This document shows positions 451 through 45,089 of a stretch of 64,000 nt of DNA, piece by piece. The notes under the pieces were generated by a model. It ran no database searches. It was not told where the DNA came from and saw only the letters and a program-made list of their open reading frames with translations. The stretch's first letter is position 1; every line of letters begins with the position of its first letter. Origin of the DNA: a virus (taxonomy: Duplodnaviria; Caudoviricetes); the IMG/VR virus record IMGVR_UViG_3300032227_001172, positions 166,692-230,691 of that record. The stretch is one strand, 5' to 3'. The position numbers were made by a program, and so were the translations under genes.

Positions 451-528
451 TAAACCCTTTGTGTGTAAGCACTTAGGGCAAACGGGGCGGGCCGGCCTTG
501 ACGTAAATCCTTTAGTAGTAAGGACTTA
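451..528. repeat. 78-bp double-palindrome element, copy 1
   Basis: taaaccctt-N7-aagcactta, 28-bp GC-rich spacer (centre ggcgggcc), taaatcctt-N7-aaggactta. Confidence 0.95.
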
Positions 529-584
529 TGTCCGATAGCAAATACCGTACCAAAAAAATCTTTTCTTTTTCTAAAATTTTCTGC

Positions 585-613
585 TTGACATCTAAAGTTT
601 TATCTGCTAAAAT
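585..613 (+). promoter_or_regulatory. sigma70-type promoter
   Basis: TTGACA-17-TAAAAT downstream of element copy 1 and an A/T tract. Confidence 0.75.
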
Positions 614-1005
614 GTCGATATAAGAGAAAGAGAAAGAGAAAGTGAATGATGAAAAGTGAAGAAGAAAAGCGTATCGAAGAGTATAACCAATTCATGGACG
701 AATGGGAAAAGCGTCCTAAGAATCGTGATCTGTATGGCAATAACTGCTATCGCCCCGATGAAGTGGCGTTGACGGATGAAGAGTACGAGATGTTTGGCTA
801 GGAGTAAATAAAATGGATAATCCAGAAATCAAACCAATTGAACCATGTCGAACCACCAAGCGTCGAAAGACTCGGTATGGTTCTGCTGGTCGTAACTATT
901 ATGGTGAGTTGAGAAGGTTTAGGGGCTATCGTGGCCCGTTGAAAAAAGATAGCTTGACAACCTAAAATTTTTCTGGTAGACTGCCGATATAAGAAAGAAA
1001 GGAAG

Positions 1006-1329
1006 ATGATGAGTCACCCTGATCCGTGCTACGATCCCTATAACTCTTACGAGGATGATCATATGGCTACTAACTACAGCGATTACCACTACGATTACCA
1101 CGATGCTTTCTACGGAGAAGATAGTGCGAGCTATCATCCCGATGCAGACCATGAAGTTGCGTCACAGTTTGATGAAGAAGAGGAAGAGAATGAAGAATGG
1201 TCTGACGATTATAATGATAGTATGGATGGAGATCACGAGTCCGGCCTTGCGAGTGCGGGTTGGGGCTTGGACGAATCATATGATCCGTCATACGACCACG
1301 ACGACTACGATCACGGAGGAGATTGGTGA
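1006..1329 (+). CDS. very acidic D/E/Y-rich hypothetical protein
   Basis: ORF with aaggaag RBS; extreme Asp/Glu/Tyr/His bias. Confidence 0.7.
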   Translation: MMSHPDPCYDPYNSYEDDHMATNYSDYHYDYHDAFYGEDSASYHPDADHEVASQFDEEEEENEEWSDDYNDSMDGDHESGLASAGWGLDESYDPSYDHDDYDHGGDW

Positions 1330-1511
1330 TTATGTAGAATATTGTGGCAGTTGTGACATAAACAGATACACTTATTGATTTCTACTAATATTGTATTCCA
1401 TGCCATATGTTTGCCTATAAGTTGAATTACTCCATTTTTTTTATTAGATGGTTCTAGATGATGCCAAACTAGTGATCTAACGTCAGAATAGCCACAGAAG
1501 GAGAAAATTGA

Positions 1512-1718
1512 ATGAGTACGCACAGATTCTTTGATATCGTGGTCGAAAATGAAATGGGCGATATGCTTATTGATAAGGAATATGTTCTCGACTTGCCAGA
1601 ACATAATATGGATGATGCTGTTGACAGGCAAGAGTTTTTGGGTATCATGTTTGATAGTGTGATTGCTGCTAGTGGATTGAATATTTGTTCCTTTAGTTCT
1701 CAGGAGATTTTGGCATGA
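1512..1718 (+). CDS. hypothetical protein
   Basis: ORF with aggag RBS; stop overlaps next start. Confidence 0.65.
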   Translation: MSTHRFFDIVVENEMGDMLIDKEYVLDLPEHNMDDAVDRQEFLGIMFDSVIAASGLNICSFSSQEILA

Positions 1719-1945
1719 AGGTTGTTGTAACACATACTGATACTTTTGGTGGCGAACCTAACTATGGCTGGGTCAAAAGTTTTGATTTCGTTGCTCATAA
1801 TGATGCCTCTCAGCGAAGTATTGTTCGCACAGCAAAGGCTGCTGTTGGTATGACAGGCGTAAGGTCTACGACCTATGATTATGGTGATAGTTTGACTATC
1901 AAGCCTCGTGGATATAATCAAGTTATTTTCGTAGATTTCGAGTAA
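1715..1945 (+). CDS. conserved small phage protein (TDTFGGEPNYGWV motif)
   Basis: ORF coupled to upstream gene; ends 9 nt before element copy 2. Confidence 0.7.
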   Translation: MKVVVTHTDTFGGEPNYGWVKSFDFVAHNDASQRSIVRTAKAAVGMTGVRSTTYDYGDSLTIKPRGYNQVIFVDFE

Positions 1946-1954
1946 GCCTCGTCG

Positions 1955-2032
1955 CAAACCCTTTGTGCATAAGCACTTAGGGCGAGCGGGGCGCGCCGAA
2001 TTTGACGTAAGTTCTGAATCTACAACACTTTA
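1955..2032. repeat. 78-bp double-palindrome element, copy 2
   Basis: caaaccctt-N7-aagcactta / centre ggcgcgcc / taagttctg-N7-aacacttta. Confidence 0.9.
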
Positions 2033-2095
2033 GATCAAAAAAAATTTATTAAGTTCTTCTTGACTTTGGTCGATAAATGCAGTAGAGTAAGAGAT

Positions 2096-2266
2096 ATGAG
2101 CAAACGCAAGAAAAATATCGTGCTGAGTCTGAACGTACGTCCAGTTTGGGAATTGGGCAAGGGTCATAGCTGTCATCTTTCTGGTGGCGGTCAACATGAC
2201 AATCGTCCCAAAAAACTTAGGACTAGGGGAGATAAGAACCGTAACGCTATCGGTGATGGCTGGTAG
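2096..2266 (+). CDS. small basic protein (DNRPKKLRTR motif), paralog of 11055-11216
   Basis: In-frame ATG at 2096 just after a TTGACT-17-TAGAGT promoter; motif shared with second copy. Confidence 0.7.
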   Translation: MSKRKKNIVLSLNVRPVWELGKGHSCHLSGGGQHDNRPKKLRTRGDKNRNAIGDGW

Positions 2267-2748
2267 TCTCTGCTAATCCTTCAGATTTGGGCTGATGGGT
2301 ATAGTCAGCCTAAAGTTAGAGCACTTGACTTGTCGATACTTATAGTATAGAATGGTACAGAAGGAGAGTTATTATGTTGGGTGATTTTATTCTGGTGTGG
2401 GTTTGGATGGGTGCTACTCTTTTAATGTTGGGTTTTGTCTACTTTCTCTCTATTGTAGGGGAAGTTTGGCAGAGAATAAATGAGTATGAGGCTATGAGGG
2501 CCAGGGGTTATACTCTTATGAAAAATGATAAGAATGATGATTTCTGGGTAGGATACGGGGATTGACCACTTAAACAAAATGGAGATACAGGGATGTATCA
2601 GTTTGATTTTATCAGTGTGGCTTTTGGGTATATTGCTGGTATTATTCTGTATGCTAGTATGTCAAATATCATGTATATGGAGGAAAGTGATGAAAGCGAG
2701 TGACTACATATTGTGGGGGTGTGTTTTGTTATTGGTTGCACTATGACG

Positions 2749-2826
2749 TATCTCCTTCATCTGTAAGGACTTACGTCGAGTTCGGCCCGCCCCGGAAAGC
2801 GTAAGTGCTTATGCTGCAACACTTTA
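2749..2826. repeat. 78-bp double-palindrome element, copy 3
   Basis: tatctcctt-N7-aaggactta / centre ggcccgcc / taagtgctt-N7-aacacttta. Confidence 0.9.
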
Positions 2827-2923
2827 CGTCAATTCTTACAATCTCGTAAGATTTAAGTTTACCCCTTGCATTAGACGATAATAGATAGTAGAATACGATA
2901 TAGAAGAAAGGCAAGGGTAAGAC

Positions 2924-3187
2924 ATGAGTCCAGATGGAAGCTATAACGGTTATGCAAACTATCAAACGTGGAATGTTTGCTTGTGGCTGAGTAATGATGA
3001 ACTTCTGTATAGTATAGCTAAACAGTGTATCTCTTACGACCATTTCAGAATTTTGATTCGTGAGATTTTCGAGAAAGATAATCTGAGATTTGAAACTCCC
3101 GATGGTGTGGCTTGGAATGATAGCGGCATCAACATTGCCGAAATGGTAGAGTATTGGGAAGAAAATTTTTCTAAAGTTCCCGCTTGA
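2924..3187 (+). CDS. conserved phage protein (YNGYANYQTWNVCLWLSNDE motif)
   Basis: ORF; N-terminal motif resembles a common phage hypothetical family. Confidence 0.75.
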   Translation: MSPDGSYNGYANYQTWNVCLWLSNDELLYSIAKQCISYDHFRILIREIFEKDNLRFETPDGVAWNDSGINIAEMVEYWEENFSKVPA

Positions 3188-3218
3188 CAAGTGTCGATAT
3201 ATAGTGTAGACTTAGCGT

Positions 3219-3665
3219 ATGGATGTTTTGACTAGTTTTCAATTTGAAAGGTTTCTTATGAACGATGTGATTTTGTTTGGTTCGATTCTTGCGGCTGTTG
3301 CCGCTGCTGTTGTTAGTTTTGTCTTCTATTCGGTCTATGGTGGATCGAAGGCTAGTTTGGTGAATGCCCAAGAGGGTCAGATTTTCAATTTTGAATATGA
3401 ACAGCCTTTGCATGGTGAATCAAAGCGTTTCCTTGCTAAGGTGATTGAGCCGGTTTATACTCTGAGTGATTCGTCCATCAAGGCTCTGAATCGTCGTAGT
3501 CGATATCGTAGAAATGATCCAGTGTTTCAGCGGACAAGTCATCTGGTGACTTGTCAGACTCCTGACGGTAAGATTCGCCAATTCTATGCTGAGAGAGTTA
3601 AGAATTGCCGAAAGCCTTTGCTGGCTGGTGCTCTCTTTAAGAGTGGTGTTGCTAGTCTGCTCTAA
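3219..3665 (+). CDS. membrane-anchored hypothetical protein, possible WYL-like C-terminal domain
   Basis: Hydrophobic N-terminal helix; C-terminal RQFYAERV resembles the WYL-type RxF motif. Confidence 0.55.
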   Translation: MDVLTSFQFERFLMNDVILFGSILAAVAAAVVSFVFYSVYGGSKASLVNAQEGQIFNFEYEQPLHGESKRFLAKVIEPVYTLSDSSIKALNRRSRYRRNDPVFQRTSHLVTCQTPDGKIRQFYAERVKNCRKPLLAGALFKSGVASLL

Positions 3666-3701
3666 AAATTAGCAGTCTCTGCCTACTAGTTGACCAACCC
3701 C

Positions 3702-3779
3702 TAACCCTTTGACACCAAAGGACTTAGGGCGAGGTCGGCCGGCACGCTTCGTCGTAAGTCTTTATATGTCAACGCTTTA
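3702..3779. repeat. 78-bp double-palindrome element, copy 4
   Basis: taacccttt-N7-aaggactta / centre ggccggca / taagtcttt-N7-aacgcttta. Confidence 0.92.
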
Positions 3780-3808
3780 CGACAATTTTTTTTATCAAGT
3801 TTTTCCTC

Positions 3809-3837
3809 TTGACAAGCCGATAATAGTAGTGTAGAAT
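3809..3837 (+). promoter_or_regulatory. sigma70-type promoter with CGATA in spacer
   Basis: TTGACA agccgataatagtagtg TAGAAT (17-bp spacer, extended TG). Confidence 0.85.
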
Positions 3838-3862
3838 ACAAGGAATCAAAAGGAGAAAGAAG

Positions 3863-4126
3863 ATGCTATTTAAGCCTTATGCTTTGAGAGATTCTGTGAA
3901 GCGGACTGTGGAAGGTGATATGATTAGGTTTAGCGGTTACAGTGTTGGTGGTCGTCCATTCTGTATCTCAACCAAACTCAGCGATGCCAACGAGTGGCTG
4001 AATGGTGGATTGATTCAGAATTGCTTCCCGTATCTTGATGCTGATGATCGTGAGATTCTCAAAACGGGGTTTGATGCTCAGGATTGGGAAACGATGTTCG
4101 CAGGAACTAGGGAGGAAGAAGAATGA
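3863..4126 (+). CDS. conserved phage protein (LIQNCFPYLDADDREILKTG)
   Basis: ORF with aggag RBS downstream of promoter. Confidence 0.75.
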   Translation: MLFKPYALRDSVKRTVEGDMIRFSGYSVGGRPFCISTKLSDANEWLNGGLIQNCFPYLDADDREILKTGFDAQDWETMFAGTREEEE

Positions 4127-4581
4127 ATACCGATACCTATATGGTGATGAAGGGTAATAAAGTTGTAGGCTATGTGGAAGCATATAGTACCTATCATGCA
4201 CTGGCTATGGCCGAAAAGTTGTATGGGAAGAATTTGCTCATTGAGCGAATCTCCAATGTTTGTCCTGCCTAACCCTAGCGGGTCGGGCTGGATGGGTTTA
4301 GTCAGCCAATAGTCGGGACTTGACAAAGAGTCTTTAATAGAGTATATTGTGCAGAAAGGGAGAGAATTATGTTGACGAGTGATGAACGAGACGCTGTTTG
4401 TGGGTGTGTGGCTGATTTTGCTACTCGTTTGCTTACCGCTGCTACTATTGATGAGAAGTCTATGCACCAAGAACTAGATATTTTTTTTGAGTTCTTTTGT
4501 AAGGCTCTTGAGATTGCCGAAAGAGATGGGGCGGGTAAGTTCCGTGAGTCTATTGGGGCTAGTAATAACTAAGGGGATATC

Positions 4582-4761
4582 ATGAGAGTTTGTCCATGTG
4601 GGTCTGGCAAGAAAAGCTGGTGGGAAACTGATGCTCGTGGAATTCCACTGGGTAGGGTTTGTTTGGAGTGTTTGGATAAAAAGTTGAGTAAGTATAGGCC
4701 AGAAGTGTTGACCAACTCCAACTACTGTGCTGATGAACCTATTGAGGCAGAAGACTATTAA
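4582..4761 (+). CDS. small Cys-rich protein (CPCGSGK...CxxC), likely zinc-binding
   Basis: Hand-translated 59-aa ORF MRVCPCGSGKKSWWETDARGIPLGRVCLEC; below ORF-track cut-off. Confidence 0.7.
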   Translation: MRVCPCGSGKKSWWETDARGIPLGRVCLECLDKKLSKYRPEVLTNSNYCADEPIEAEDY

Positions 4762-4764
4762 TCG

Positions 4765-4842
4765 TAAGTCCTTATCCTTAAACAACTTAGGGATAGGGCG
4801 GGCGGCCGAATTTGATGTAAGTGCTTGTGTATCATAGGGTTA
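4765..4842. repeat. 78-bp double-palindrome element, copy 5
   Basis: taagtcctt-N7-aacaactta / centre gggcggcc / taagtgctt-N7-atagggtta. Confidence 0.92.
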
Positions 4843-4883
4843 CGTCAATGCTAAAAAATTTTTGGAATTCCTATAGATAGCTC

Positions 4884-4912
4884 TTGACAAGTGACGATAA
4901 TAGATGTATACT
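4884..4912 (+). promoter_or_regulatory. sigma70-type promoter positioned to drive the ncRNA array
   Basis: TTGACA agtgacgataatagatg TATACT. Confidence 0.85.
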
Positions 4913-4920
4913 TAGCACAT

Positions 4921-5484
4921 AAGCAGATGAGGGCCGCTGGCAGAATGATATCAAAGTAGCCACGGTTAAATGCAAGGCCGAGTATGGCATAACCCTATCT
5001 GTTTTATAATACAAAACTCGTGGGTCCATGCCTTGGACTAGGTTGGGTAACTCATTACGATAAGCATCGCATGTCGCGGCAGCGATGATGCTGACAGTGC
5101 CGGTTACGCACTGGATAGTAGTGCCAATCTATGGGGGATCGCGTCCTCACCACGTTATAATACAATGTGTAGGTTAAGCGTTAAGCAGCCAACGGTTGGC
5201 GGGAGTACTACCACAACCGTCCGTTAGACCAGCATAGGAAAGTGTGGGTAAAATCCCACCACATTGACAATACAACCAGTAGCCGCTTTGAAACAGCATG
5301 GTGATGAGATACTGATCATATCTCTAGGGACCAATGTCGTGGGCGGTTTCCAACGAGAGAGCCCCATTGGGAGGGTGGGTTTGAGGATCCCAACAACAAA
5401 CCTAACTAGCGTTGGAGCATAGAACCGGATCGTCAATGGTTCGCTGGTGATAAGCAGGGGTCGGATAGAAACCAAGTTTACTGG
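4921..5484 (+). ncRNA. array of four putative structured ncRNAs separated by AATACAA linkers
   Basis: No long + strand ORF; each unit closed by a terminal stem (4921-5004, 5019-5154, 5163-5266, 5276-5484) with internal hairpins. Confidence 0.7.
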
Positions 5485-5531
5485 CTGGGTTGGATAATGC
5501 GTGATACCGGACATTATTTGTAAAACTATCG

Positions 5532-5604
5532 CTGGATATAACTCAAATGGCAGAGTTCCACTCAGAGATGAGAGGAGTTACAGGTTCGAACCCTGTTATC
5601 TGGT
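5532..5604 (+). ncRNA. tRNA-like RNA with non-canonical anticodon arm (GAGA tetraloop)
   Basis: Acceptor ctggata/tatctgg, D arm actc/gagt, T arm acagg-TTCGAAC-cctgt; anticodon arm pairs only as tcc-a-ctca-GAGA-tgag-a-gga. Confidence 0.7.
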
Positions 5605-5809
5605 AAGTCGATCCATTAACAGCCGGTATACAATACAAAGGAAAAAAGATGAATAAAAACGAGGCGATCATTAAGGTTCTTAGGGTTTTAAGGAGCCAAT
5701 CGGCTGCTGTAAATAAACCTAATCGGGAAGAGGCATTGACTTTAGCAGAAGAGCATGGTATAACTGCTAAGGAATTGATTGACACTTGGGTGGAAATTTG
5801 TAGGAACAT

Positions 5810-6040
5810 ATGATGAACTGGCATTACGATAATCCTATTTTGAACGGTCAATATCTGTGTTGTGTTAAGGATTATTCTTTCCCCTTTCCTTTGTTCTGGA
5901 GTGTGGAGAATGGAGGTTGGGGTGAATGGTGGCATGGCGAACAAGATGATGGGTTGGTAGAATGGAATCAGTTTGACAACTCGTTAGTGGTGTGCTATAC
6001 TAGCTTTCAAGAAATTCCTATGCCAGAGGGTTGGAAATGA
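5810..6040 (+). CDS. hypothetical Trp-rich protein
   Basis: ORF track. Confidence 0.6.
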   Translation: MMNWHYDNPILNGQYLCCVKDYSFPFPLFWSVENGGWGEWWHGEQDDGLVEWNQFDNSLVVCYTSFQEIPMPEGWK

Positions 6041-6331
6041 TCTACTTAAATATTAATGAGATTGAGAGATTGGCCGAAATTGTGGCTGAACTGGTTAAGT
6101 TGGGCATGAGTGTTACTGCTGAACTCCGTGGGACAAAGTGGCATATTGAGGTAACTGAGTGATGAAAACTAAAACTCTTGAGCTGACCAAAGTAGAACTT
6201 AATTATCTGTATAATCTCGTTTGTGAAAATATAGAGCGCGGTGAGTATTGGGGAAATCAGAATCAGTTTATGAAGATGCAAGAACGTGTTTTTAATAAAC
6301 TGATGGACTGCGAAACAGAGGTGGCATCCTA

Positions 6332-6589
6332 ATGGAATGGATTAGTTTCCACGGGCCTCGTCGCCCTATTAATGGTCAAAAGATCATCTATTATGGTGAG
6401 CCTATTGGTGTGTGGCGTGGAAAGTATAGAATAAACTATAATGATCCTTTTTGTATTCACAATATTGATTGTGGTGAAGCTCCCGGTAATGTAGATTATT
6501 TCGACGCTCCTTGGTGGATGCCAGATGAGGGACAACCAAAACCACCACCACCAAAAGAACATTATCCAAAAGACTATCCTAGAGATTGA
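6332..6589 (+). CDS. hypothetical protein
   Basis: ORF with gaggt RBS. Confidence 0.6.
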   Translation: MEWISFHGPRRPINGQKIIYYGEPIGVWRGKYRINYNDPFCIHNIDCGEAPGNVDYFDAPWWMPDEGQPKPPPPKEHYPKDYPRD

Positions 6590-6705
6590 AATTATGAAAA
6601 CTATCAGTAATATTTGTGATTGTGGTATGTGCAGTGAAGCATATTACACTATAGATAAGTACGGTGTGTGCTGGAGTATGTGCAGCGAGTGTGGTTGGTG
6701 GTACT

Positions 6706-6783
6706 TAAACTATTGATACATAAGAACTTAGGGCAAGGTTGGCCGGCCCCGTTCGTCATAAGTCCTTACTACTAAAGACTTTA
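6706..6783. repeat. 78-bp double-palindrome element, copy 6
   Basis: taaactatt-N7-aagaactta / centre ggccggcc / taagtcctt-N7-aagacttta. Confidence 0.92.
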
Positions 6784-6863
6784 CGTTTAAAAAGATTTTT
6801 TCAAGATTCCTCCTTGACTTGTCGATAATAGTAGTGTAAGATGGTGGTAACACGAAAGGGAAT

Positions 6864-7109
6864 ATGATGACTGTTGCTGAATTGATTGAAGAACTGAACA
6901 AGCTACCCCAAGATATGCTTGTGCTTGTGCCGGGTTATGAGGGTGGGTACGACAATATCGAAGTTCAGAGGAATGGGGCTGTTGTTGTGGACGATAATTG
7001 GGATGGACAAGAAAAGTTTTATTGGTATAATGGGCGACACGCCTCATACTACAAGGATATGGAAGGCGACGAGCCTACGTCATGCGTTGTTATCGGGAGA
7101 GGTAAATGA
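6864..7109 (+). CDS. conserved small phage protein (MTVAELIEELNKLPQD...GYEGGY)
   Basis: ORF after promoter 6814-6842. Confidence 0.75.
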   Translation: MMTVAELIEELNKLPQDMLVLVPGYEGGYDNIEVQRNGAVVVDDNWDGQEKFYWYNGRHASYYKDMEGDEPTSCVVIGRGK

Positions 7110-7615
7110 AAACGGTTGAAAAACACGCCGAAGTACGATTTCATCTACTAAACGGGCCTAATTATAAAAAATGGCAGGTAAACGTGATGCAAGGAAAGAA
7201 AAGGGTTGACCAATTTTATGTAGACCCTACAGAATACCAGTTAGAGATGCGTGGTTGCAAGCTGGTAAATAAGGTAGCTAGGGCGAAATGGGTCAATAAG
7301 AAACAGAAAAAGAATGTGAGTGGATGGGTTCAGTGTGAAGAAGTTATGCTTCGCAAGGATTTTTATCCCTCTTTGCCTATTGACAATCTTGAGAAGTTGT
7401 ATTATAATCCCATTCGTGATGTTCACTGGCGACGAGAGAGTGATTGTGGTGAACATGTTTGGGATAACAGTGAGTATGACACCTTAGTTACCGATGGGCG
7501 ACAGGTTCATATTCTGGAAGAACGTAACGGAAATTTTGACGGTATTTACGAGATAGACCCTAAGTATACAGAAAGTTTTGGAATTTATGATCAAGATCGA
7601 AATGAGCGTTCGTGA
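7106..7615 (+). CDS. hypothetical phage protein
   Basis: 169-aa ORF coupled to upstream gene. Confidence 0.7.
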   Translation: MKTVEKHAEVRFHLLNGPNYKKWQVNVMQGKKRVDQFYVDPTEYQLEMRGCKLVNKVARAKWVNKKQKKNVSGWVQCEEVMLRKDFYPSLPIDNLEKLYYNPIRDVHWRRESDCGEHVWDNSEYDTLVTDGRQVHILEERNGNFDGIYEIDPKYTESFGIYDQDRNERS

Positions 7616-7961
7616 GTCGCTGAACATGATTGCAAACGGTTGCAGTCTCGATATGTTCGATAAGATTGTGTGTGCATTGGAAGTGGCACTTGGTGTGAAT
7701 CAGCGTTGCATGGTAACGATCACCGGAGGCTTGACTCTGGACAATCGTATTCATTCCATAAAGGCTATTCGTCAGCACACAGGATGGGGTCTCAAAGAGG
7801 CCAAGGATTGGAGCGACTATCTGGTTGGCGGCTGGCATTACGATAAATTCGTTCCTGCCAAGCCCGGAGCCAAACAGAGCATCACTCTGAAAACGCCAGA
7901 AGCGGCAGAGGCACTGCTGCGTGATCTGGTTGGGCTGGGTTGTGAGGGTTATCTCTCATGA
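7578..7961 (+). CDS. ribosomal protein bL12 (L7/L12) C-terminal-domain-like protein
   Basis: RIHSIKAIRQHTGWGLKEAKDW matches the bL12 CTD signature KIxVIKxVRxxTGLGLKEAKxxV. Confidence 0.7.
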   Translation: MEFMIKIEMSVRESLNMIANGCSLDMFDKIVCALEVALGVNQRCMVTITGGLTLDNRIHSIKAIRQHTGWGLKEAKDWSDYLVGGWHYDKFVPAKPGAKQSITLKTPEAAEALLRDLVGLGCEGYLS

Positions 7962-7963
7962 CC

Positions 7964-8041
7964 TAAAGCCTTGTCCCTAAAGAACTTAGGGCGAGGCGGG
8001 CCGGCCGAATTTGATGTAAGTCCTTATCAGCAAACAACTTA
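7964..8041. repeat. 78-bp double-palindrome element, copy 7
   Basis: taaagcctt-N7-aagaactta / centre ggccggcc / taagtcctt-N7-aacaactta. Confidence 0.95.
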
Positions 8042-8236
8042 GGAAAAAGAAAAAATTTTTGAGGTTCACTCAAGTGTAGACTTGACAATGACGATACTAT
8101 ACTGTAGAATGATAGAACAAGCGAGACAAGTGGCTGCCCAAGAAGCCAACATAAGAAACCTTCTGGGCAGACTTGACAAGCGGTAATCGGTTGTGTATAC
8201 TGATTATGTTGGGTATGACTACTTTTACTTTGGAGG

Positions 8237-8503
8237 TTGATTATGAAGGCTTTTAGTTTCAACGTGACGATTGCTGCCGATGGTCTTGATTGCGAAGTGA
8301 TTGAGGATACGATTCGTGAGGCTCTGTCCTCTGGTCTGCCTGAAGAAACTCTGGCTCTTGTCAAGGCAGATGGTGTGAAGGAGTATAGTGAGCAAGGTTG
8401 GAAGGTTGCTCGTAATCGTAAGTTCGGTATCGGTGTCAAGGAAGCCGGTGACGGTCACAAGGCCAAGGCAACCAAGAATGTTACCGAGGAGGCTGTTGCC
8501 TAA
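8237..8503 (+). CDS. hypothetical protein
   Basis: ORF with ggagg RBS. Confidence 0.7.
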   Translation: MIMKAFSFNVTIAADGLDCEVIEDTIREALSSGLPEETLALVKADGVKEYSEQGWKVARNRKFGIGVKEAGDGHKAKATKNVTEEAVA

Positions 8504-8511
8504 TCAAAAAA

Positions 8512-8790
8512 CTGGACTATGCCAGTATAAAGGGCTAACGCCCCACCGATAAGAGTGATAACATTCGTCGGATGAGATTTTAGGCATAGTGCGGCGGGGT
8601 CAAACCCGCGTAATGATGGTTAGTTGCAAGACCAAAAGGTGCAACTTAGAGGGTCTAACCAACCAGATAAGTCGGGTGGTTCCGTCGAAGTTATCGACCT
8701 CTAGCGTATATTACTAATGACGATGGTAAGACGATAACGCCATCAAACCGTAATGCCTACATGGGACGCCATGTGGGCTTGCGGCGTTGA
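8512..8790 (+). ncRNA. putative structured ncRNA(s) upstream of tRNA-Arg
   Basis: ORF-free stretch with successive stems: actatgcc/ggcatagt, agttgca/tgcaact, tagagg/cctcta, gcctacatgg/ccatgtgggc. Confidence 0.55.
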
Positions 8791-8814
8791 GTGGGTATGT
8801 TATAATAGACACGC

Positions 8815-8886
8815 GGCCCCATAGTTAAATGGATATAATAAGTGACTTCTAATCTCTAGTTGCAGGTTCGATTCCTGCTGGGGCTA
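8815..8886 (+). tRNA. tRNA-Arg(TCT)
   Basis: Cloverleaf; loop CTTCTAA; T arm gcagg-TTCGATT-cctgc. Confidence 0.9.
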
Positions 8887-8891
8887 TTGTT

Positions 8892-8965
8892 GGGGGTGTA
8901 GATCAATTGGTTAGATCGCTAGCTTGTCACGCTAGAGGTTGCGGGTTCGAGTCCCGTCACTCTCG
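8892..8965 (+). tRNA. tRNA-Asp(GTC)
   Basis: Cloverleaf; ctagc-TTGTCAC-gctag. Confidence 0.93.
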
Positions 8966-8972
8966 TTTGTCG

Positions 8973-9050
8973 TAAACCCTTACTGTATAAGCACTTAGGG
9001 CAAATGCGGAGGGCCGGGGTCGTCGTAAGTCCTTATGTCACAACAACTTG
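8973..9050. repeat. 78-bp double-palindrome element, copy 8
   Basis: taaaccctt-N7-aagcactta / centre ggagggcc / taagtcctt-N7-aacaacttg. Confidence 0.93.
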
Positions 9051-9130
9051 CATCAAGAATAATTTTTTGAAGTTTTTCGCTTGACTATGCCGATACTATA
9101 GTGTAGAATCGGTAGACACAGGAGAAGAAC

Positions 9131-9835
9131 ATGAAAACTGCTGATGGTAATGATAAGTTGGGTAAGGGTTGCATTGTGGTTTCGCGTCCGGTTGGCGATA
9201 CTTGCCCGCCCGATTGCGACTATCTTGGAAACGGCTGCTATGCCGAAGCTACTGAAAACCAGTATAAAAATGCTCGCACTGCCGGGTTTGCTAATGTCAT
9301 AACGGAAAAGAATAAAATCCGTGCTATGATTCTGGAAGCAAAACGTCGTGAGAAGTCTATCCGTTGGCATGAACGTGGCGATTGGTTTCTCAATGGCGAA
9401 CTTGACCTAGACTATGTTGCTAATGTAACGTGGGCTTGTGAGAGTATTCTTGCCGATGGTGATACGTTGCCCGATATGTGGTTTTATACTCATATCTATG
9501 ATTCTCGGCTTGTGAGTCTGGAAAAGTATATGAATGTATATGCTAGTGTGCATGACGATAACGATATGGGAGAAGCACTATCACAGGGTTTCAAGCTGTT
9601 CGCATGGTGTGACAGCGATATGAAGATTGCTCCGAAGCGTCCTAAGAGCAAAGCAAAAGCCGAAGCATGGCGACAAGCACTGCCGAAGCTGGTGGTTCTT
9701 AATGCCACAAAGTTTGTAGTATGTCCCGAAATTCGTCGTGGTCGTTCGGAAATCACTTGCACTGGCACTAAAGATAGTATATCATGTGACTTGTGTGTTC
9801 GTGGTTTGGCTAATGTTTTGTTTCCAGCCCATTGA
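9131..9835 (+). CDS. GP88-like protein (radical-SAM-like Cys cluster)
   Basis: TCPPDCDYLGNGCYA, IRWHERGD, WFYTH and C-terminal CxxC motifs. Confidence 0.7.
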   Translation: MKTADGNDKLGKGCIVVSRPVGDTCPPDCDYLGNGCYAEATENQYKNARTAGFANVITEKNKIRAMILEAKRREKSIRWHERGDWFLNGELDLDYVANVTWACESILADGDTLPDMWFYTHIYDSRLVSLEKYMNVYASVHDDNDMGEALSQGFKLFAWCDSDMKIAPKRPKSKAKAEAWRQALPKLVVLNATKFVVCPEIRRGRSEITCTGTKDSISCDLCVRGLANVLFPAH

Positions 9836-10410
9836 AAGGAATAAAAATGAGCTACGTTGGATTGTATGATGATGCAGGAAGTAAGAATGCTTTCTATATT
9901 ATCAAAGACAAAAAGATTAACCGTAAGCGGGTGGGTTTTAAAGAGTTTGAGAATGAGCAAGAGGCTAAGTTTGCCCATCGTGTTCAGTCTCATTTGGCTC
10001 AGTTTGATTTGGCCCCTATGGTATATGGGGATGTTGGTATGATTCGTAGGCATGATGGTGAAATGACTTGTTATGGTTATTTGACCGAAGTTGCTCGACC
10101 CATGCCAGTATGTCACGATGACGAATATTGTGATGGTGAATGTTTTGAGAGTAGTTGTAAGAATGGTATTGCTATCATGGGAATAGTATCTGATTTAGAT
10201 GAGCATGGTTTATCGTACAATGATGCTCATAGAGGAAACTTTGGTTATGTTCGACGTAAAGGGTCGTGGGTTCCGGTTGTGATTGACCTTGGGATTGAGA
10301 GTTTTAGTGACTGGGATGAAGATATTTATGGGAAGTTCGATTATGATAAGTACGACTATGATAATGAATGTAATTGTGTTTACTGCCAAAAATTTAGAGA
10401 CAGAGGATAA
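9832..10410 (+). CDS. atypical protein-kinase-like protein, paralog of 57610-58164
   Basis: GFKEF (catalytic Lys), DAHRGN catalytic loop, IDLG. Confidence 0.65.
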   Translation: MKGIKMSYVGLYDDAGSKNAFYIIKDKKINRKRVGFKEFENEQEAKFAHRVQSHLAQFDLAPMVYGDVGMIRRHDGEMTCYGYLTEVARPMPVCHDDEYCDGECFESSCKNGIAIMGIVSDLDEHGLSYNDAHRGNFGYVRRKGSWVPVVIDLGIESFSDWDEDIYGKFDYDKYDYDNECNCVYCQKFRDRG

Positions 10411-10412
10411 TT

Positions 10413-10643
10413 ATGGCAAAGTATTATATCAAATCTGGAACACTAGAACTAATTTATTCCTGCAACAAATGTCCAAGAGATGCTGCGATGGATGCTATAT
10501 GGGAAATAAATGATTATGATACACTAGATGAGTATATCTATCTTGATGAACGTGGATATAAAGACTATACAAATGCTGATGGATTAACTTGTGTGTTACA
10601 TACTACCCATATTCTAAAAGACGCCGGATGGACTTTGGAATGA
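10413..10643 (+). CDS. hypothetical protein
   Basis: ORF with gagga RBS. Confidence 0.65.
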   Translation: MAKYYIKSGTLELIYSCNKCPRDAAMDAIWEINDYDTLDEYIYLDERGYKDYTNADGLTCVLHTTHILKDAGWTLE

Positions 10644-10652
10644 AGCTAACCG

Positions 10653-10730
10653 CAAACCCTTACTGCGTAAGCACTTAGGGCGAGCGGGGCCGCCCGGCTT
10701 TGACGTAAGTCCTTAGCCCACAACACTTTA
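10653..10730. repeat. 78-bp double-palindrome element, copy 9
   Basis: caaaccctt-N7-aagcactta / centre ggccgccc / taagtcctt-N7-aacacttta. Confidence 0.93.
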
Positions 10731-10768
10731 GAGCAAATCCAAAAATCTTCTAAAGTTTCTACGCCGGA

Positions 10769-11182
10769 TTGGTCGATAATATAGGTATGAGAACGACACG
10801 CATATCAACGAGGGGTGAGAGGATGATCCAGTGGGTTGGAATTGTGATTACGATTTTGGGTCTGGCGTATACGGGAATCAAAGATTATCAAAAAGGTGAT
10901 ATAAAATTCCCTCCTATGCCTCAGAAACCGGTCTTGACAAAGGTAGTTTATCCGGTACAATACTGTCTGATGGCTTACGACCCTAATGTTGACAAAGTTT
11001 TTTACCTACACGAAAATGGACAATGGCATGATTACGCTCCACAACAACGACGATATGAGGCCCAAACGCAACCATATCAAGCTCAAGGTTCGACCGCAGT
11101 GGCAGGTTCCTACGGGTCACAAGGAACACCGGCATACCGTTATGGACAATCGCCCCAAGCGTCAACGAACCCGATCCGCTGA
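10769..11182 (+). CDS. membrane-anchored hypothetical protein (likely start at MIQWVG)
   Basis: N-terminal hydrophobic helix; gagagg RBS. Confidence 0.55.
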   Translation: MVDNIGMRTTRISTRGERMIQWVGIVITILGLAYTGIKDYQKGDIKFPPMPQKPVLTKVVYPVQYCLMAYDPNVDKVFYLHENGQWHDYAPQQRRYEAQTQPYQAQGSTAVAGSYGSQGTPAYRYGQSPQASTNPIR

Positions 11183-11216
11183 AAATCGCAGGGCTTGCGA
11201 GAATGGGGACTATTGA
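11055..11216 (+). CDS. small basic protein, paralog of 2096-2266
   Basis: VRPQWQVPTGH...DNRPKRQRTR aligns with VRPVWELGKGH...DNRPKKLRTR. Confidence 0.7.
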   Translation: MRPKRNHIKLKVRPQWQVPTGHKEHRHTVMDNRPKRQRTRSAENRRACENGDY

Positions 11217-11232
11217 CTATAATACTTTGATT

Positions 11233-11305
11233 GCCGCTGTAGCTCAATTGGCAGAGCAACGCTTTTGTAAAGCGTAGGTTATCCGTTCGATTCGGATGAG
11301 CGGCT
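11233..11305 (+). tRNA. tRNA-Thr(TGT)
   Basis: acgct-TTTGTAA-agcgt; T arm present. Confidence 0.9.
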
Positions 11306-11306
11306 C

Positions 11307-11377
11307 TCCGGGATAGTGTAACGGTAGCACCAGAGATTTTGGTTCTCTTTGTCTGGGTTCGAATCCTAGTCCCGGAA
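11307..11377 (+). tRNA. tRNA-Gln(TTG)
   Basis: agaga-TTTTGGT-tctct; acceptor tccggga/tcccgga. Confidence 0.92.
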
Positions 11378-11387
11378 TTGTAAATAT

Positions 11388-11459
11388 TGTCCGATAGCTC
11401 AACGGTAGAGTAGGCGGCTGTTAACCGCTTGGTTCTAGGTTCGAATCCTAGTCGGACAG
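11388..11459 (+). tRNA. tRNA-Asn(GTT)
   Basis: ggcgg-CTGTTAA-ccgct. Confidence 0.92.
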
Positions 11460-11462
11460 CTT

Positions 11463-11549
11463 GGAATCTTGGCCGAGTGGTTTAAGGCAGCGGTTTACTA
11501 AACCGTCGAGGGTTAAAATCCTCCGTGGGTTCGAATCCCTCAGATTCCG
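11463..11549 (+). tRNA. tRNA-Ser with unusual ACT anticodon
   Basis: gcggt-TTACTAA-accgt, long variable arm, G discriminator. Confidence 0.88.
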
Positions 11550-11600
11550 CTAAAGATTCTCTTGACAACAGACGATAACTATGGTATCATCGAACAACAC

Positions 11601-11676
11601 GGGGCGTAAGGTAAGCCGGTTGCATCCGACACTCTTATAAGGTGTTCATAGGTCTGTTCGACTCAGACACGCCCTA
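11601..11676 (+). tRNA. tRNA-Ile(TAT)
   Basis: acact-CTTATAA-ggtgt; T arm gtctg-TTCGACT-cagac; atypical D arm. Confidence 0.8.
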
Positions 11677-11707
11677 TTCGGAGGCTGACGATTGAGTTAC
11701 GATGGCT

Positions 11708-11779
11708 GGCCCTATAGTCTAACGGCTAGGACGACAGCCTTTCACGCTGTAGATTGGAGTTCGATTCTCCATAGGGTCA
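11708..11779 (+). tRNA. tRNA-Glu(TTC)
   Basis: acagc-CTTTCAC-gctgt. Confidence 0.92.
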
Positions 11780-11818
11780 CTTGACAACAAAGGAAAGTTC
11801 CGGTATACTGTAAAACAC

Positions 11819-11891
11819 GGGTCATTAGCTCAGTTGGTAGAGCAAGGAGCTTTTAACTCTTTGGCCGTAGGTTCGAGTCCTACATGACCCA
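11819..11891 (+). tRNA. tRNA-Lys(TTT)
   Basis: aggag-CTTTTAA-ctctt. Confidence 0.93.
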
Positions 11892-12124
11892 CTTGACAGT
11901 TTTGGTTGCTAGATATAGACGAGATAAGAAAGGGAGTAAAATATGAGATATGAAGATTACTATGATGGCTACAACTATAACTATGACGAACTAGTAGAAG
12001 ATACTGAAGATCTTGGTCTGGATGAAGAACCTTGGATGCAAGATGCCGAGAACGAAGATGATGAAGTTCCGTCCTATGGTAAAAATTACTATCCTTGTAT
12101 TGACGACGAAAACGAATAATTTTT

Positions 12125-12206
12125 GTGTGTGCTTCTAGGTGGGACTAGAACCTAATATATTATCTTTTCATGTAACGGGTTGTTGGTTCAAATCCAACCA
12201 CACACT
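12125..12206 (+). ncRNA. tRNA-like element (intact acceptor and T arm, no anticodon arm)
   Basis: gtgtgtg/cacacac stem; gttgg-TTCAAAT-ccaac; ttctag/ctagaa hairpin at D position. Confidence 0.6.
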
Positions 12207-12208
12207 TT

Positions 12209-12712
12209 ATGAATACTTTTCAGCAAGAGCTTGATGATTTCCGGCGTACTCCAGACGGTAAAATCATTCAAGGTGCTGCTCATACTAGCCGGATATTAAA
12301 TCACAAATATAGAAATAGTGTGATTATCAAGGCTATCTGTTCTCTGCGTAAGATTGAGAATGATTTTGATAGTATTGCTTGTTGTGGCGTAAGTGGTTTG
12401 ATGGTAGTACCACAGATTGCAGAGATTCTGAATAAGAATATTATTATCGTTCGTAAAGGAGAACGAAGGTACAGCGAATTCTTTATCGAAGGCGTTGCTC
12501 CATCTAGTTATGTGATTGTAGACGATTTGATTTGTTCGGGCGGAACGGTTAAGCGAATTATGAGTAATATTCATGATGATGTTCCGAAAGCAAAATGTAT
12601 TGGTGCATATTTCTATATGGGTGAGGAGTGTGCCTACAATGCTTCAAATTCTAAACTTTTTGAGAAGCAGTTTGGGACAGTTCTTCTAAATCCTTACCAG
12701 CTAACGACTTAG
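12209..12712 (+). CDS. type I phosphoribosyltransferase
   Basis: PRPP-binding loop VIVDDLICSGGT. Confidence 0.85.
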   Translation: MNTFQQELDDFRRTPDGKIIQGAAHTSRILNHKYRNSVIIKAICSLRKIENDFDSIACCGVSGLMVVPQIAEILNKNIIIVRKGERRYSEFFIEGVAPSSYVIVDDLICSGGTVKRIMSNIHDDVPKAKCIGAYFYMGEECAYNASNSKLFEKQFGTVLLNPYQLTT

Positions 12713-12764
12713 GGCGAGGCCGGCCGGCCCCGGTCGCCATAAGTCCTTATCTGACAACCACTTA
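12687..12764. repeat. 78-bp double-palindrome element, copy 10
   Basis: taaatcctt-N7-aacgactta / centre ggccggcc / taagtcctt-N7-aaccactta; overlaps PRTase 3' end. Confidence 0.93.
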
Positions 12765-12864
12765 GGATTAGTATTTTTTTTCAAGATACCCCCTTGACAT
12801 AGCCGATACTAGAGTGTAGAATCGAAAGACGTAACGAAGGTTCAGTAACACGAAAGGATAGATT

Positions 12865-13812
12865 ATGCCTGCTATGGTTGAAAAGATGATGTTCGTTGGT
12901 GCCACCCCTTGGCATGGTGAAGGTACACAGTTGGATGAAAATCCGTCGATCAGCGAAGCGATTACCGCTGCTGGTCTGGATTGGGAGGTTGGTACTAAAC
13001 CACTCTTTACGGCTGAAGGTACGGAGGTCAATGCAAAAGCGACCTATCGTAAAACCGACAGTCGTGTTCTGGGTGTGGTTGGTCCGCGTTATACTCCGCT
13101 CCAGAATCAAGATGCGTTCGATTGGTTCCAGCCATTTCTCGACGCAGGTGAGTGCCAACTGCACACTGCCGGTTCGCTCAGTGAGGGCGAGAAGGTTTGG
13201 GTGCTGGCTCAACTCAATCGTGACAACTGCGAGATCGTAAAGAACGACGAGGTGAGCAAGTTTATCCTGCTTTCCAACAGCCATGATGGCACAACGTCGA
13301 TTCGTGTTGGCTATACGCCGATTCGGGTCGTGTGTGTGAATACTCTTGCGGCTGCTCATAACAGCAAAGAGAGTTCGCTCATTCGGATTCGCCATACCCG
13401 CTCCAGCAAGACGAATCTCGACAATGTTCGTGATATCATGGATAATATCAATGCTCAGTTTGAAGCGACTGCGGAGCAGTATAGGTTTCTCGCTAGTCGA
13501 GACTTCAACCAGAATGACGTTCGCAAGTACGTCAAGGTTCTGCTGGGAATCGATAAGACTCCAGACGAGGATATCAAAACTCGTACTCGAAATATCATGG
13601 ACGAGATTTTGACTCTCGTTGAAGGTCCGAAACAGTCTGCTGTTGGCGTTCGTGGAACGTGGTGGGCTGCCTACAACGGCTTCAATGAATATCTGAACTA
13701 CAGCAAGGGTCGCACGGTGAGCAACCGACTCGACTCTCTCTGGTTCGGACAAAACGGAGTCGATAATCTCAAGGCACTCAATACCGCAGTTGAGTTTGCC
13801 AACGCTATCTAG
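12865..13812 (+). CDS. DUF932 family phage/plasmid protein
   Basis: PWHGEG, LDWEV, YTPLQN, LLSNSHDG, TPIRVVCVNTL, GTWWAAYNGFNEY motifs. Confidence 0.88.
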   Translation: MPAMVEKMMFVGATPWHGEGTQLDENPSISEAITAAGLDWEVGTKPLFTAEGTEVNAKATYRKTDSRVLGVVGPRYTPLQNQDAFDWFQPFLDAGECQLHTAGSLSEGEKVWVLAQLNRDNCEIVKNDEVSKFILLSNSHDGTTSIRVGYTPIRVVCVNTLAAAHNSKESSLIRIRHTRSSKTNLDNVRDIMDNINAQFEATAEQYRFLASRDFNQNDVRKYVKVLLGIDKTPDEDIKTRTRNIMDEILTLVEGPKQSAVGVRGTWWAAYNGFNEYLNYSKGRTVSNRLDSLWFGQNGVDNLKALNTAVEFANAI

Positions 13813-13840
13813 TCGCTCTCCTTTCGTGGTGCGTGGCAGG

Positions 13841-13880
13841 GGAAGCCGTCCCTCAGAAATGGGGGGCGGCTTTCTCTATT
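13841..13880 (+). terminator. rho-independent terminator
   Basis: aagccgtccctca-GAAA-tggggggcggcttt followed by pyrimidine-rich run. Confidence 0.75.
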
Positions 13881-13900
13881 TCTAAATATAGGAAATTACC

Positions 13901-13978
13901 TAAGTGCTTGACACATAAGGACTTACGACAAACCCGGCCCGCAAACTTTGTCATAAGTTTAAGATACCAAAGGACTTA
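13901..13978. repeat. 78-bp double-palindrome element, copy 11 (last)
   Basis: taagtgctt-N7-aaggactta / centre ggcccgca / taagtttaa-N7-aaggactta. Confidence 0.9.
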
Positions 13979-44672: not shown

Positions 44673-45089
44673 ATGCCGAAGGGTCAAAAATGTTGTGATA
44701 ATTGTGGACATTGCACTGGTCCCCGTGCTTATATGTGTCCTAAATGTAATCATACTTTTGTATTTAAAGCACAGAGTAAAGAAAAAAAACATACCAAAAT
44801 TATTAAAGACTTTAATTGGAAGGACTTGGTTAAGGGAGATAAAATCAAGGTTGGTGGTGGCCCATATTTTGTCTCTAGAGGAGAATTTATCCCCATGGGA
44901 TATAGGGGAAGATTTATTGTAGAAAGTATTGATGATAAGGGTATTAGGGCTATGGGTCTTGATAAATATCAAGGTTTTTGTCATATTTATATGGGACCAG
45001 ATTGGCAAAACCCAGAAACTCAAGTTTGGAAAATCAAGCATAAGCTACTTAAACTTAAGCCTAAAAATAAAGACCATGTAGACGTATGA
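44673..45089 (+). CDS. zinc-ribbon hypothetical protein
   Basis: KCCDNCG...CPKC; own promoter at 44608 and aggag RBS. Confidence 0.7.
   Translation: MPKGQKCCDNCGHCTGPRAYMCPKCNHTFVFKAQSKEKKHTKIIKDFNWKDLVKGDKIKVGGGPYFVSRGEFIPMGYRGRFIVESIDDKGIRAMGLDKYQGFCHIYMGPDWQNPETQVWKIKHKLLKLKPKNKDHVDV

Follow-up and report, generated by a model that had tools for sequence, protein, structure and literature searches.

What does a long and rigidly built DNA element do when it stands, over and over again, between the small early genes of a large phage? This question is raised by an uncultured freshwater phage (Duplodnaviria; Caudoviricetes) with a 230-kb genome, of which we analyzed the last 64 kb (IMG/VR virus record IMGVR_UViG_3300032227_001172, positions 166,692 to 230,691). 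This whole stretch of 64,000 nt is referred to as the window, and positions are those of the window unless genome positions are given; the complete record has 230,691 bp and a terminal repeat of only 123 bp. A first-pass annotation made from the sequence alone had reported eleven copies of a 78-bp element in the early region, each composed of two palindromic sites (dyads) and hence of four half-sites, and had proposed two options for its role, an attC-like recombination site or a phased four-subunit operator/architectural site. The data presented here are better accommodated by the second option. In the interpretation that we favor, and for which we see about equal weight on either side, the element is a boundary module on which a predicted protein docks to double-stranded DNA, and it additionally serves as a crossover patch for cassette shuffling similar to that of the promoter-early stem-loops (PeSLs) of T4-like phages.

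Using the 25-bp dyad pattern with up to three mismatches, we obtained 31 matches in the window, compared to 0.33 ± 0.68 in dinucleotide-preserving shuffles. Dyad matches mark every one of the eleven reported copies, and the proposed layout, two 9-N7-9 dyads (N7, seven variable nucleotides) separated by 28 bp, was seen at each start when the copies were printed in register. Outside the copies, the window holds a lone three-mismatch dyad at 44804, in line with the earlier statement that no full copy is found in the remaining 50 kb. The copies, numbered 1 to 11, and the promoters predicted behind most of them are the following (ORF, open reading frame).

451-528, + strand: copy 1 (genome copy 7 of 17); left dyad 451-475, spacer 476-503, right dyad 504-528
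585-613, + strand: promoter after copy 1, TTGACA-17-TAAAAT with TG, 56 nt past the element
1955-2032, + strand: copy 2, beginning 10 nt past the stop codon of ORF 1715-1945
2060-2088, + strand: promoter after copy 2, TTGACT-17-TAGAGT, 27 nt past the element
2749-2826, + strand: copy 3, inner half-sites in flipped arrangement
2866-2894, + strand: promoter after copy 3, TTGCAT-17-TAGAAT, 39 nt past the element
3702-3779, + strand: copy 4, beginning 37 nt past a stop codon
3809-3837, + strand: promoter after copy 4, TTGACA-17-TAGAAT, 29 nt past the element
4765-4842, + strand: copy 5, dyad types swapped (right-type on the left, inverted left-type on the right)
4884-4912, + strand: promoter after copy 5, TTGACA-17-TATACT, 41 nt past the element
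6706-6783, + strand: copy 6, upstream ORF 6525-6716 terminating within the left dyad
6814-6842, + strand: promoter after copy 6, TTGACT-17-TAAGAT, 30 nt past the element
7964-8041, + strand: copy 7, beginning 3 nt past the stop codon of ORF 7578-7961
8082-8110, + strand: promoter after copy 7, TTGACA-17-TAGAAT, 40 nt past the element
8973-9050, + strand: copy 8, beginning 7 nt past tRNA-Asp (8891-8966)
9081-9109, + strand: promoter after copy 8, TTGACT-17-TAGAAT, 30 nt past the element
10653-10730, + strand: copy 9, without a good -35 hexamer downstream
12687-12764, + strand: copy 10, ORF 12209-12712 terminating at element position 26
12794-12822, + strand: promoter after copy 10, TTGACA-17-TAGAAT, 29 nt past the element
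13901-13978, + strand: copy 11, the last of the array, beginning 89 nt past a stop codon, with a degenerate right dyad and without a matching promoter behind it

A profile made from 17 copies recovered exactly these 17 in the whole genome, between genome positions 161,274 and 180,669, namely the eleven of the window and six directly upstream of it, which together form a single 19-kb block; the same search returned zero copies from the other 210 kb of the genome.

Genome positions 161274, 162123, 162804, 163910, 165304 and 166381: the six upstream copies (profile search)

The G+C content of the 19-kb block is 39-45%, as opposed to ~32% in the rest of the genome, and copy 11 sits where it drops from ~45% to ~34%. 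Within the window, the G+C content amounts to 41-45% over the array and 30-36% right after the last element, and reaches 37-40% only in the last 4 kb; the raised value of the array region is present in the ORFs too, beyond the elements themselves.

The element is real and specific and appears to be undescribed, as had been proposed: no Rfam family matched at the elements, including at a permissive E-value, and our literature search found no paper describing it. Near-identical DNA was likewise not found among GenBank phages. Relatives were collected by means of an exact sub-pattern of the left dyad. This yielded 88 stretches from IMG/VR contigs whose lengths are in many cases 200-244 kb, and the profile identified 494 copies in these stretches, 397 of them distinct.

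Each 25-bp pseudo-palindromic site has the consensus TAARNNNTT-N7-AANNAYTTA. The strongly conserved columns of the profile are TAA (element positions 1-3), TT (8-9), AA (17-18), A-CTTA (21-25), G36, C42-C43, TAAGT (54-58), TT (61-62), AA (70-71) and TTA (76-78), and both N7 stretches are nearly without information. The GC-rich spacer with a GG-N4-CC centre described earlier is recognizable as the conserved G36 G37 and C42 C43. The strong inner half-sites read TAAGTSCTT; the outer ones depart from this in a conserved manner, reading TAAACCCTT on the left and TAARKYGTT on the right (read on the other strand).

The geometry of the element is rigid. The offset of 53 bp between the two palindromes, formerly taken to be invariant, applies to all 11 window copies, while one upstream copy has 54. 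Among the 365 distinct copies of relatives in which the spacer could be measured, 350 (96%) have exactly 28 bp, nine have 27, five have 29 and one has 23, so that all but one lie within 1 bp of 28. Seven of the nine 27-bp cases stem from a single lineage (L029, IMGVR_UViG_3300044949_001703), whose elements include at least seven with this spacer, and five of these also show the half-site variant TAACTCCTT; this lineage could serve as a handle on a co-varying binder. The N7 sequence, by contrast to the lengths, differs in every copy, as noted before (all 34 N7 sequences of the genome are distinct), and 333 elements contained 150 distinct left and 176 distinct right N7 sequences. As read from the sequence, the outer triplets at element positions 2, 24, 55 and 77 are spaced by 22, 31 and 22 bp, that is, ~2, 3 and 2 helical turns. 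Being close to whole helical turns apart, they would therefore face one side of the helix, the layout expected of two cooperating dimers on one helix face. Whole dyads are inverted in some copies, and the element is polar, the + strand scoring higher in 17 out of 17 genome copies.

The element had also been described as one long imperfect palindrome able to fold into a hairpin. This description is not borne out, as the symmetry is confined to the conserved columns. Among 367 copies, no more than 20-40% show complementarity at the half-site centre columns and, beyond its inner stem, the long hairpin pairs at alternate positions only in the same set. The RNA folds of the 11 window copies were mutually different (z-scores -0.35 to -3.5), no base pair was present in more than 32% of the minimum-energy folds of either strand, and the top mutual-information pairs were neighbouring columns, not Watson-Crick partners. 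We also carried out the suggested covariation analysis of the outer and inner half-site pairs, using a gap-free alignment of 146 copies and 500 shuffles as control. Every measure was at or below the shuffles for both structures, with 70.5% paired cells in the two-local-hairpin model (72.0 ± 0.3 in shuffles) and 69.2% in the inner long hairpin (70.8 ± 0.4 in shuffles). No intrinsic terminator was predicted at any element; T tracts start 4-14 nt behind the right dyad, where they belong to the upstream A/T tract of the promoter, and no U run adjoins either dyad.

It is the identity of the bases, over their pairing, that has been selected. In 121 pairs of orthologous copies, taken from different contigs and having 75-nt flanks at least 90% identical, divergence amounted to ~4% in the flanks and 2-6% in the four half-sites, compared to 18% in the left N7, 15-19% in the spacer and 24% in the right N7 (33-40% at positions 65-68). 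Purifying selection on base identity thus maintains the half-sites, with fast turnover of the N7 and spacer in between. Changes in the left N7 were bimodal among the pairs (0 differences in 70, 3-6 in 30), which looks like block replacement.

With respect to the neighbouring genes, most window copies begin 3-10 nt past a stop codon or tRNA-Asp, and two overlap the end of the upstream ORF. Behind the element follows an A/T tract and then a strong sigma70-type promoter with the consensus cTTGACA-17-TGTAgAAT. For 72% of 411 distinct copies, a promoter in the same direction and with 10 or more of 12 positions matching was found no further than 140 nt downstream, as compared to 2-4% in three control placements. 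For the distance between element and -35 hexamer, 29-31 bp is the commonest value, and smaller peaks are seen at 19-20, 35, 41-42 and 45; the raw distances have their peaks at 20, 30-31 and 41. Given a distance of 30 bp, the dyad centres fall close to -78 (right) and -131 (left), and the element as a whole spans roughly -66 to -143 relative to the transcription start of the predicted promoter.

The elements are furthermore joints of cassette reassortment, with breakpoints in or at the element. When the flanks of 481 copies were clustered (250 nt upstream, 190 nt downstream), 116 upstream clusters were found to combine with 132 downstream clusters; individual upstream clusters had 16, 12 and 10 different downstream partners, and a few junctions were fixed. 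In pairs of copies sharing the upstream flank only, identity is ~0.9 as far as element position 9, takes intermediate values across the spacer and approaches background from ~44 onwards. For 62% of 333 such pairs, the maximum-likelihood change point was placed within the 78-bp element; the change points were spread over the element and its edges, with no pile-up in one N7. Independent support is provided by contigs from three sister samples, some of which connect the left part of one window element with the right part of another (4791 to 2800, 500 to 2801, 7967 to 8993 and 10714 to 3795), junctions at which assembly artefacts at repeats are possible. The first-pass annotation was right about the copies within the window, and missed this reassortment, the six copies upstream and the polarity of the element.

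We suggest a model in which an oligomeric protein, encoded by the phage or by its host, would read the element as double-stranded DNA. The bound complex might insulate tandem strong early units from one another by blocking read-through, or tune the next promoter, or both. The element might at the same time double as a crossover patch for PeSL-like modular shuffling, because it would be the only homology common to otherwise unrelated cassettes. A more far-reaching version, in which the element is the operator of a novel DNA-binding protein that both insulates the early units and licenses the exchange of promoter-plus-gene cassettes between co-infecting phages, in the manner of an integron without integrase acting on double-stranded sites of fixed helical geometry, appears rather unlikely to us.

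Several results weigh against the docking-module interpretation. The search for an HU/IHF-like gene gave no PF00216 match in the complete genome, nor did those for HTH_3 and RHH_1, with working controls in all cases; the search for a relative of phi29 p4 (PF05464) was also without a match in the genome, and here the control genomes were equally silent. A Pfam scan of 24 early ORFs, ten of which were compared with PHROGs as well, detected no DNA-binding domain. The widely conserved 169-aa product of ORF 7106-7615, which has 377 relatives, all unnamed, yielded a confident all-beta model (predicted local distance difference test score 81, from a 30-sequence alignment) with no match in the PDB (Foldseek best E 0.95, VIA-align best Z 2.4), and therefore no DNA-binding role is claimed for it. 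The binder may be host-encoded. As to phasing with the promoter, the distance distribution is dominated by one peak and includes the off-phase peaks at 35 and 45, and a period of 10.5 bp is not favoured when each downstream cluster is counted once, 11.5 and 13 scoring as well or better. What we claim is therefore a preferred distance and not proven helical phasing, for which the data are only suggestive. The conserved mismatches A.C and C.A of the left dyad would, in addition, be G.T wobbles on the bottom strand. A bottom-strand hairpin, considered on account of the A.C mismatches, was rejected, the minus-strand folds being as inconsistent as the plus-strand ones. Finally, the same 14 kb contains at least eight intergenic promoters that lack the element, each of the sigma70 type and matching 10-11 of 12 positions.

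140-168, + strand: promoter without element
954-982, + strand: promoter without element
2325-2353, + strand: promoter without element
3184-3212, + strand: promoter without element
4320-4348, + strand: promoter without element
8173-8201, + strand: promoter without element
11562-11590, + strand: promoter without element
11781-11809, + strand: promoter without element

These eight presumably serve as promoters within cassettes or within the tRNA run described below. The element is therefore dispensable for promoter function and marks cassette borders.

Two rival explanations place the function of the element in RNA. The PeSLs, known from the T4-like phages RB49/phi1, T4/PST and KVP40/nt-1, carry as their structured part a simple, short stem-loop for which effective termination has been described (Arbiol et al. 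2010, PMC2839356; Comeau et al. 2014, PMC4122927). Like the element, they are repeated composite cassettes between small early ORFan genes, located in a plastic early region of small ORFs, where the insertions, deletions and replacements that distinguish close relatives have their breakpoints. A PeSL-type terminator, whose RNA hairpin or hairpins would end or stabilize the upstream transcript, would thus explain the shared order of structured element, A/T-rich tract, sigma70-type promoter and Shine-Dalgarno sequence (PMC4122927), the start of most window copies just behind a stop codon or tRNA, the mildly negative folding z-scores and the fact that no other terminators are predicted in the region. 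It would also suit perfect single dyads in bacteria, which often lie just 3' of tRNA or transfer-messenger RNA (tmRNA) genes and in several cases precede T runs, a further point that tells against docking of a protein. Unlike the stem-loop of the PeSLs, however, the element, built as a rigid double dyad of 78 bp around a GC core, shows neither a conserved fold, covariation nor a U run; its stem centres are mismatched in 60-80% of the copies, pairing stays below the shuffled controls, and a terminator would not require loop and spacer lengths fixed within 1 bp. We therefore consider this explanation unlikely. If the element were instead processed by an RNase III-type enzyme between early cistrons, in the manner of the T7 early region, the inner repeat (17-62) would form the ~20-bp imperfect duplex to be cut. 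The elements do stand between cistrons, the inner stem of 17-25 with 54-62 is used in the predicted fold of 5 of 11 window copies, and the array encodes a kinase-like early protein (ORF 9847-10410) that is reminiscent of the early kinase gp0.7 of T7. Yet the distal half of the helix pairs at alternate positions only, the inner stem appears in only ~27% of the predicted folds and does not covary, and processing is unneeded for the separation of cistrons because each unit has its own promoter; a role of this kind seems highly improbable.

The other two rivals concern recombination. Core sites of tyrosine recombinases consist of inverted arms of 9-13 bp around an overlap of 6-8 bp, which is identical in partner sites. 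The 9-7-9 geometry of both dyads corresponds to this layout, as the first-pass annotation pointed out, and a recombinase encoded by the host or by an island could cut the N7 of each dyad in an integron-like manner; the reassortment of cassettes, the block-wise change of the left N7 between orthologues, the inversion of whole dyads in some copies and the two bacterial single dyads flanked by a tRNA or tmRNA gene on one side and an integrase gene on the other would all agree with this. Against it, the complete 230,691-bp record gave no match to the tyrosine recombinase family PF00589, for which the control responded in 14 of 14 genomes, nor to serine recombinases or the Y1 (HUH) transposase family PF01797, both again with working controls. 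That variable N7 sequences argue against Cre/Xer-type exchange holds for the genome as a whole, since 34 differing N7 out of 34 would block classical strand exchange, and the change points are spread instead of peaking at the N7. Moreover, a tblastn search with the two integrases adjacent to bacterial dyads as queries found, among the bacterial dyad loci, no further integrase adjoining a dyad. A site-specific recombination site is, in our judgement, quite unlikely. A related comparison is that with attC, which varies in length (~57-141 bp), conserves its structure, is recombined as a bottom-strand hairpin by the tyrosine recombinase IntI and borders promoterless cassettes. The element resembles it in having four boxes in an imperfect palindrome next to small mobile cassettes that are reassorted, but differs in its fixed length, in conserving sequence over pairing with no shared fold and no covariation, in the promoter behind most elements and in the lack of an integrase match, so that the attC-like option was abandoned. 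A passive homology patch, with neither protein partner nor regulatory role and kept merely by the copying that gene conversion and cassette exchange bring about, would account for variable parts that diverge faster than the flanks, partly in blocks, and exchange clearly does use the element. It leaves unexplained, though, why dyad-symmetric columns are fixed while N7 and spacer randomize, why the length is held within 1 bp over ~400 copies and why polarity towards the promoter is kept, and we rate it as very unlikely.

Among the known elements considered, attC, lox-type sites, intrinsic terminators and REP/BIME repeats (repetitive extragenic palindromes/bacterial interspersed mosaic elements) each fail at least one tested defining feature; for REP/BIME with RAYT transposase, this is the absence of a PF01797 match in the genome. 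The half-sites bear a weak likeness to IHF sites, as had been remarked, although their conserved columns do not spell WATCAA-N4-TTR.

Closer in layout, and in layout only, are the regulatory regions bound by phi29 p4, which contain two imperfect inverted repeats, each a separate site for an elongated dimer. Reading is limited to the outer bases and A/T tracts, with an unspecific centre and a functional pseudo-symmetry, and the sites, which precede promoters used by the host polymerase, govern the early programme (PMC3100819, PMC1904284). The element similarly has two pseudo-palindromic sites with unspecific centres upstream of host-type promoters. The sequences differ, however (CTTTTT-15-AAAATG in phi29, TAAGTSCTT-N7-AAGSACTTA here), and phi29 has four sites in one place as opposed to 34 dyads at 17 cassette borders with predicted binding.

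More distant parallels exist in other systems. The hr (homologous region) palindromes of baculoviruses are bound by dimeric IE-1, enhance early promoters and are sites of genome rearrangement. They share with the element the dispersal of imperfect palindromes, for which binding is here predicted, as well as the association with early promoters and with rearrangement, but belong to a eukaryotic virus, are tandem palindromes of ~30 bp that work independently of orientation, and also act as replication origins. The ComK boxes of Bacillus subtilis, AAAA-N5-TTTT dyads bound by a dimer of dimers, provide a second case of two A/T-rich dyads placed whole helical turns apart upstream of promoters; unlike the element, they serve a host regulon, occur with several spacings and have neither a GC core nor a link to cassette borders.

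The early regions of large phages hold most of their unknown genes for host takeover and anti-defence, and how these are gained, lost and controlled is poorly understood. The element provides a sequence tag for the borders of such cassettes, with ~400 distinct copies on dozens of uncultured freshwater jumbo-phage contigs, and the unit that moves is a cassette together with its promoter, the breakpoints lying in the tag. This extends the PeSL idea past T4-like coliphages and vibriophages to a structurally different element. Should a protein indeed bind, this protein would represent a new regulator or boundary factor specific for a well-defined sequence target of 78 bp, and the element might then be employed as a portable site for insulation or cassette exchange.

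Perfect single dyads of the form TAAGTSCTT-N7-AAGSACTTA were also encountered in bacteria, immediately behind the 3' ends of tRNA or tmRNA genes in members of the Planctomycetota, Spirochaetota and Verrucomicrobiota (loci L097, L107, L110, L165, L173, L178, L196, L198, L206, L215, L216 and others). They are often CG-flanked like the right dyad of the phage, and some are followed by T runs. In a set of 401 Planctomycetota genomes, the dyad with at most one mismatch occurred in 33 and the reversed control in 10, and the single perfect dyad was ~5 times commoner than its reversed control; the first 120 genome matches listed were rich in Planctomycetota and Spirochaetota. As there are only 1-3 copies per genome, in mixed contexts (tRNA/tmRNA 3' ends, two integrase junctions and one groEL leader), we did not use the bacterial dyads as evidence for host or mechanism. 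At the two integrase junctions (L206:2987-4283 and L196:3066-3733), the dyad lies between the 3' end of a tmRNA or tRNA-Ala gene and a tyrosine-integrase gene, like an att core. In a Phycisphaerae metagenome-assembled genome (MAG; L184:416-2224), it is located 9 nt upstream of groEL (Cpn60), the position at which CIRCE operators occur; AGCACT is common to CIRCE and the half-sites, in which it stands in everted order. Short contigs with paired dyads, having a 28-bp spacer or the phage-type promoter spacer, were found in bacterial MAGs as well (L115 and L138, probably also L136 and L183). Their bins are assigned to Gammaproteobacteria, Rhodobacteraceae, Pirellulales and Enterobacterales, and the contigs are probably misbinned ones of this phage group; the spacer of L115 is A/T-rich, not G+C-rich.

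The array itself contains small ORFs, and most early ORFs are orphans. Matches to Pfam or PHROGs were limited to DUF932, PRTase-like, GP88/DUF7227, DUF7249, Kyano_Gp96 (in an ORF upstream of the window) and a short L7/L12-like stretch, and include the following ORFs.

12865-13812, + strand: DUF932 (E 1e-50)
12209-12712, + strand: phosphoribosyltransferase-like
9131-9835, + strand: GP88/DUF7227
2924-3187, + strand: DUF7249

The L7/L12-like stretch comprises residues 55-78 of the 127-aa product of 7578-7961 (+ strand), which resemble the C-terminal domain of L7/L12 with 23.8 bits, just under the Pfam cut-off. ORF 9847-10410 (+ strand, 187 aa) had no Pfam match at E <= 0.01, and its look-alikes according to a protein language model were small protein kinases and APH/RIO/OspG-like families, with scores of 0.94-0.96; a language-model atlas look-up of two other conserved early proteins returned nothing. 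Further downstream, 59115-61790 (+ strand) encodes an 891-aa protein whose N-terminal part is 31-37% identical to rIIA of T4-like phages. It is the only T4-type gene that was seen, no search having been aimed at core T4 genes.

Two minor observations concern tRNAs. In the ORF-poor stretch behind copy 5, the Rfam tRNA model matches 5532-5604 (+ strand) with 35.5 bits, above its threshold, at a site where ARAGORN reports none. The run of seven tRNA genes at 11233-11892 includes a tRNA-Ser (11463-11550, + strand) with the anticodon ACT and thus an unusual A34.

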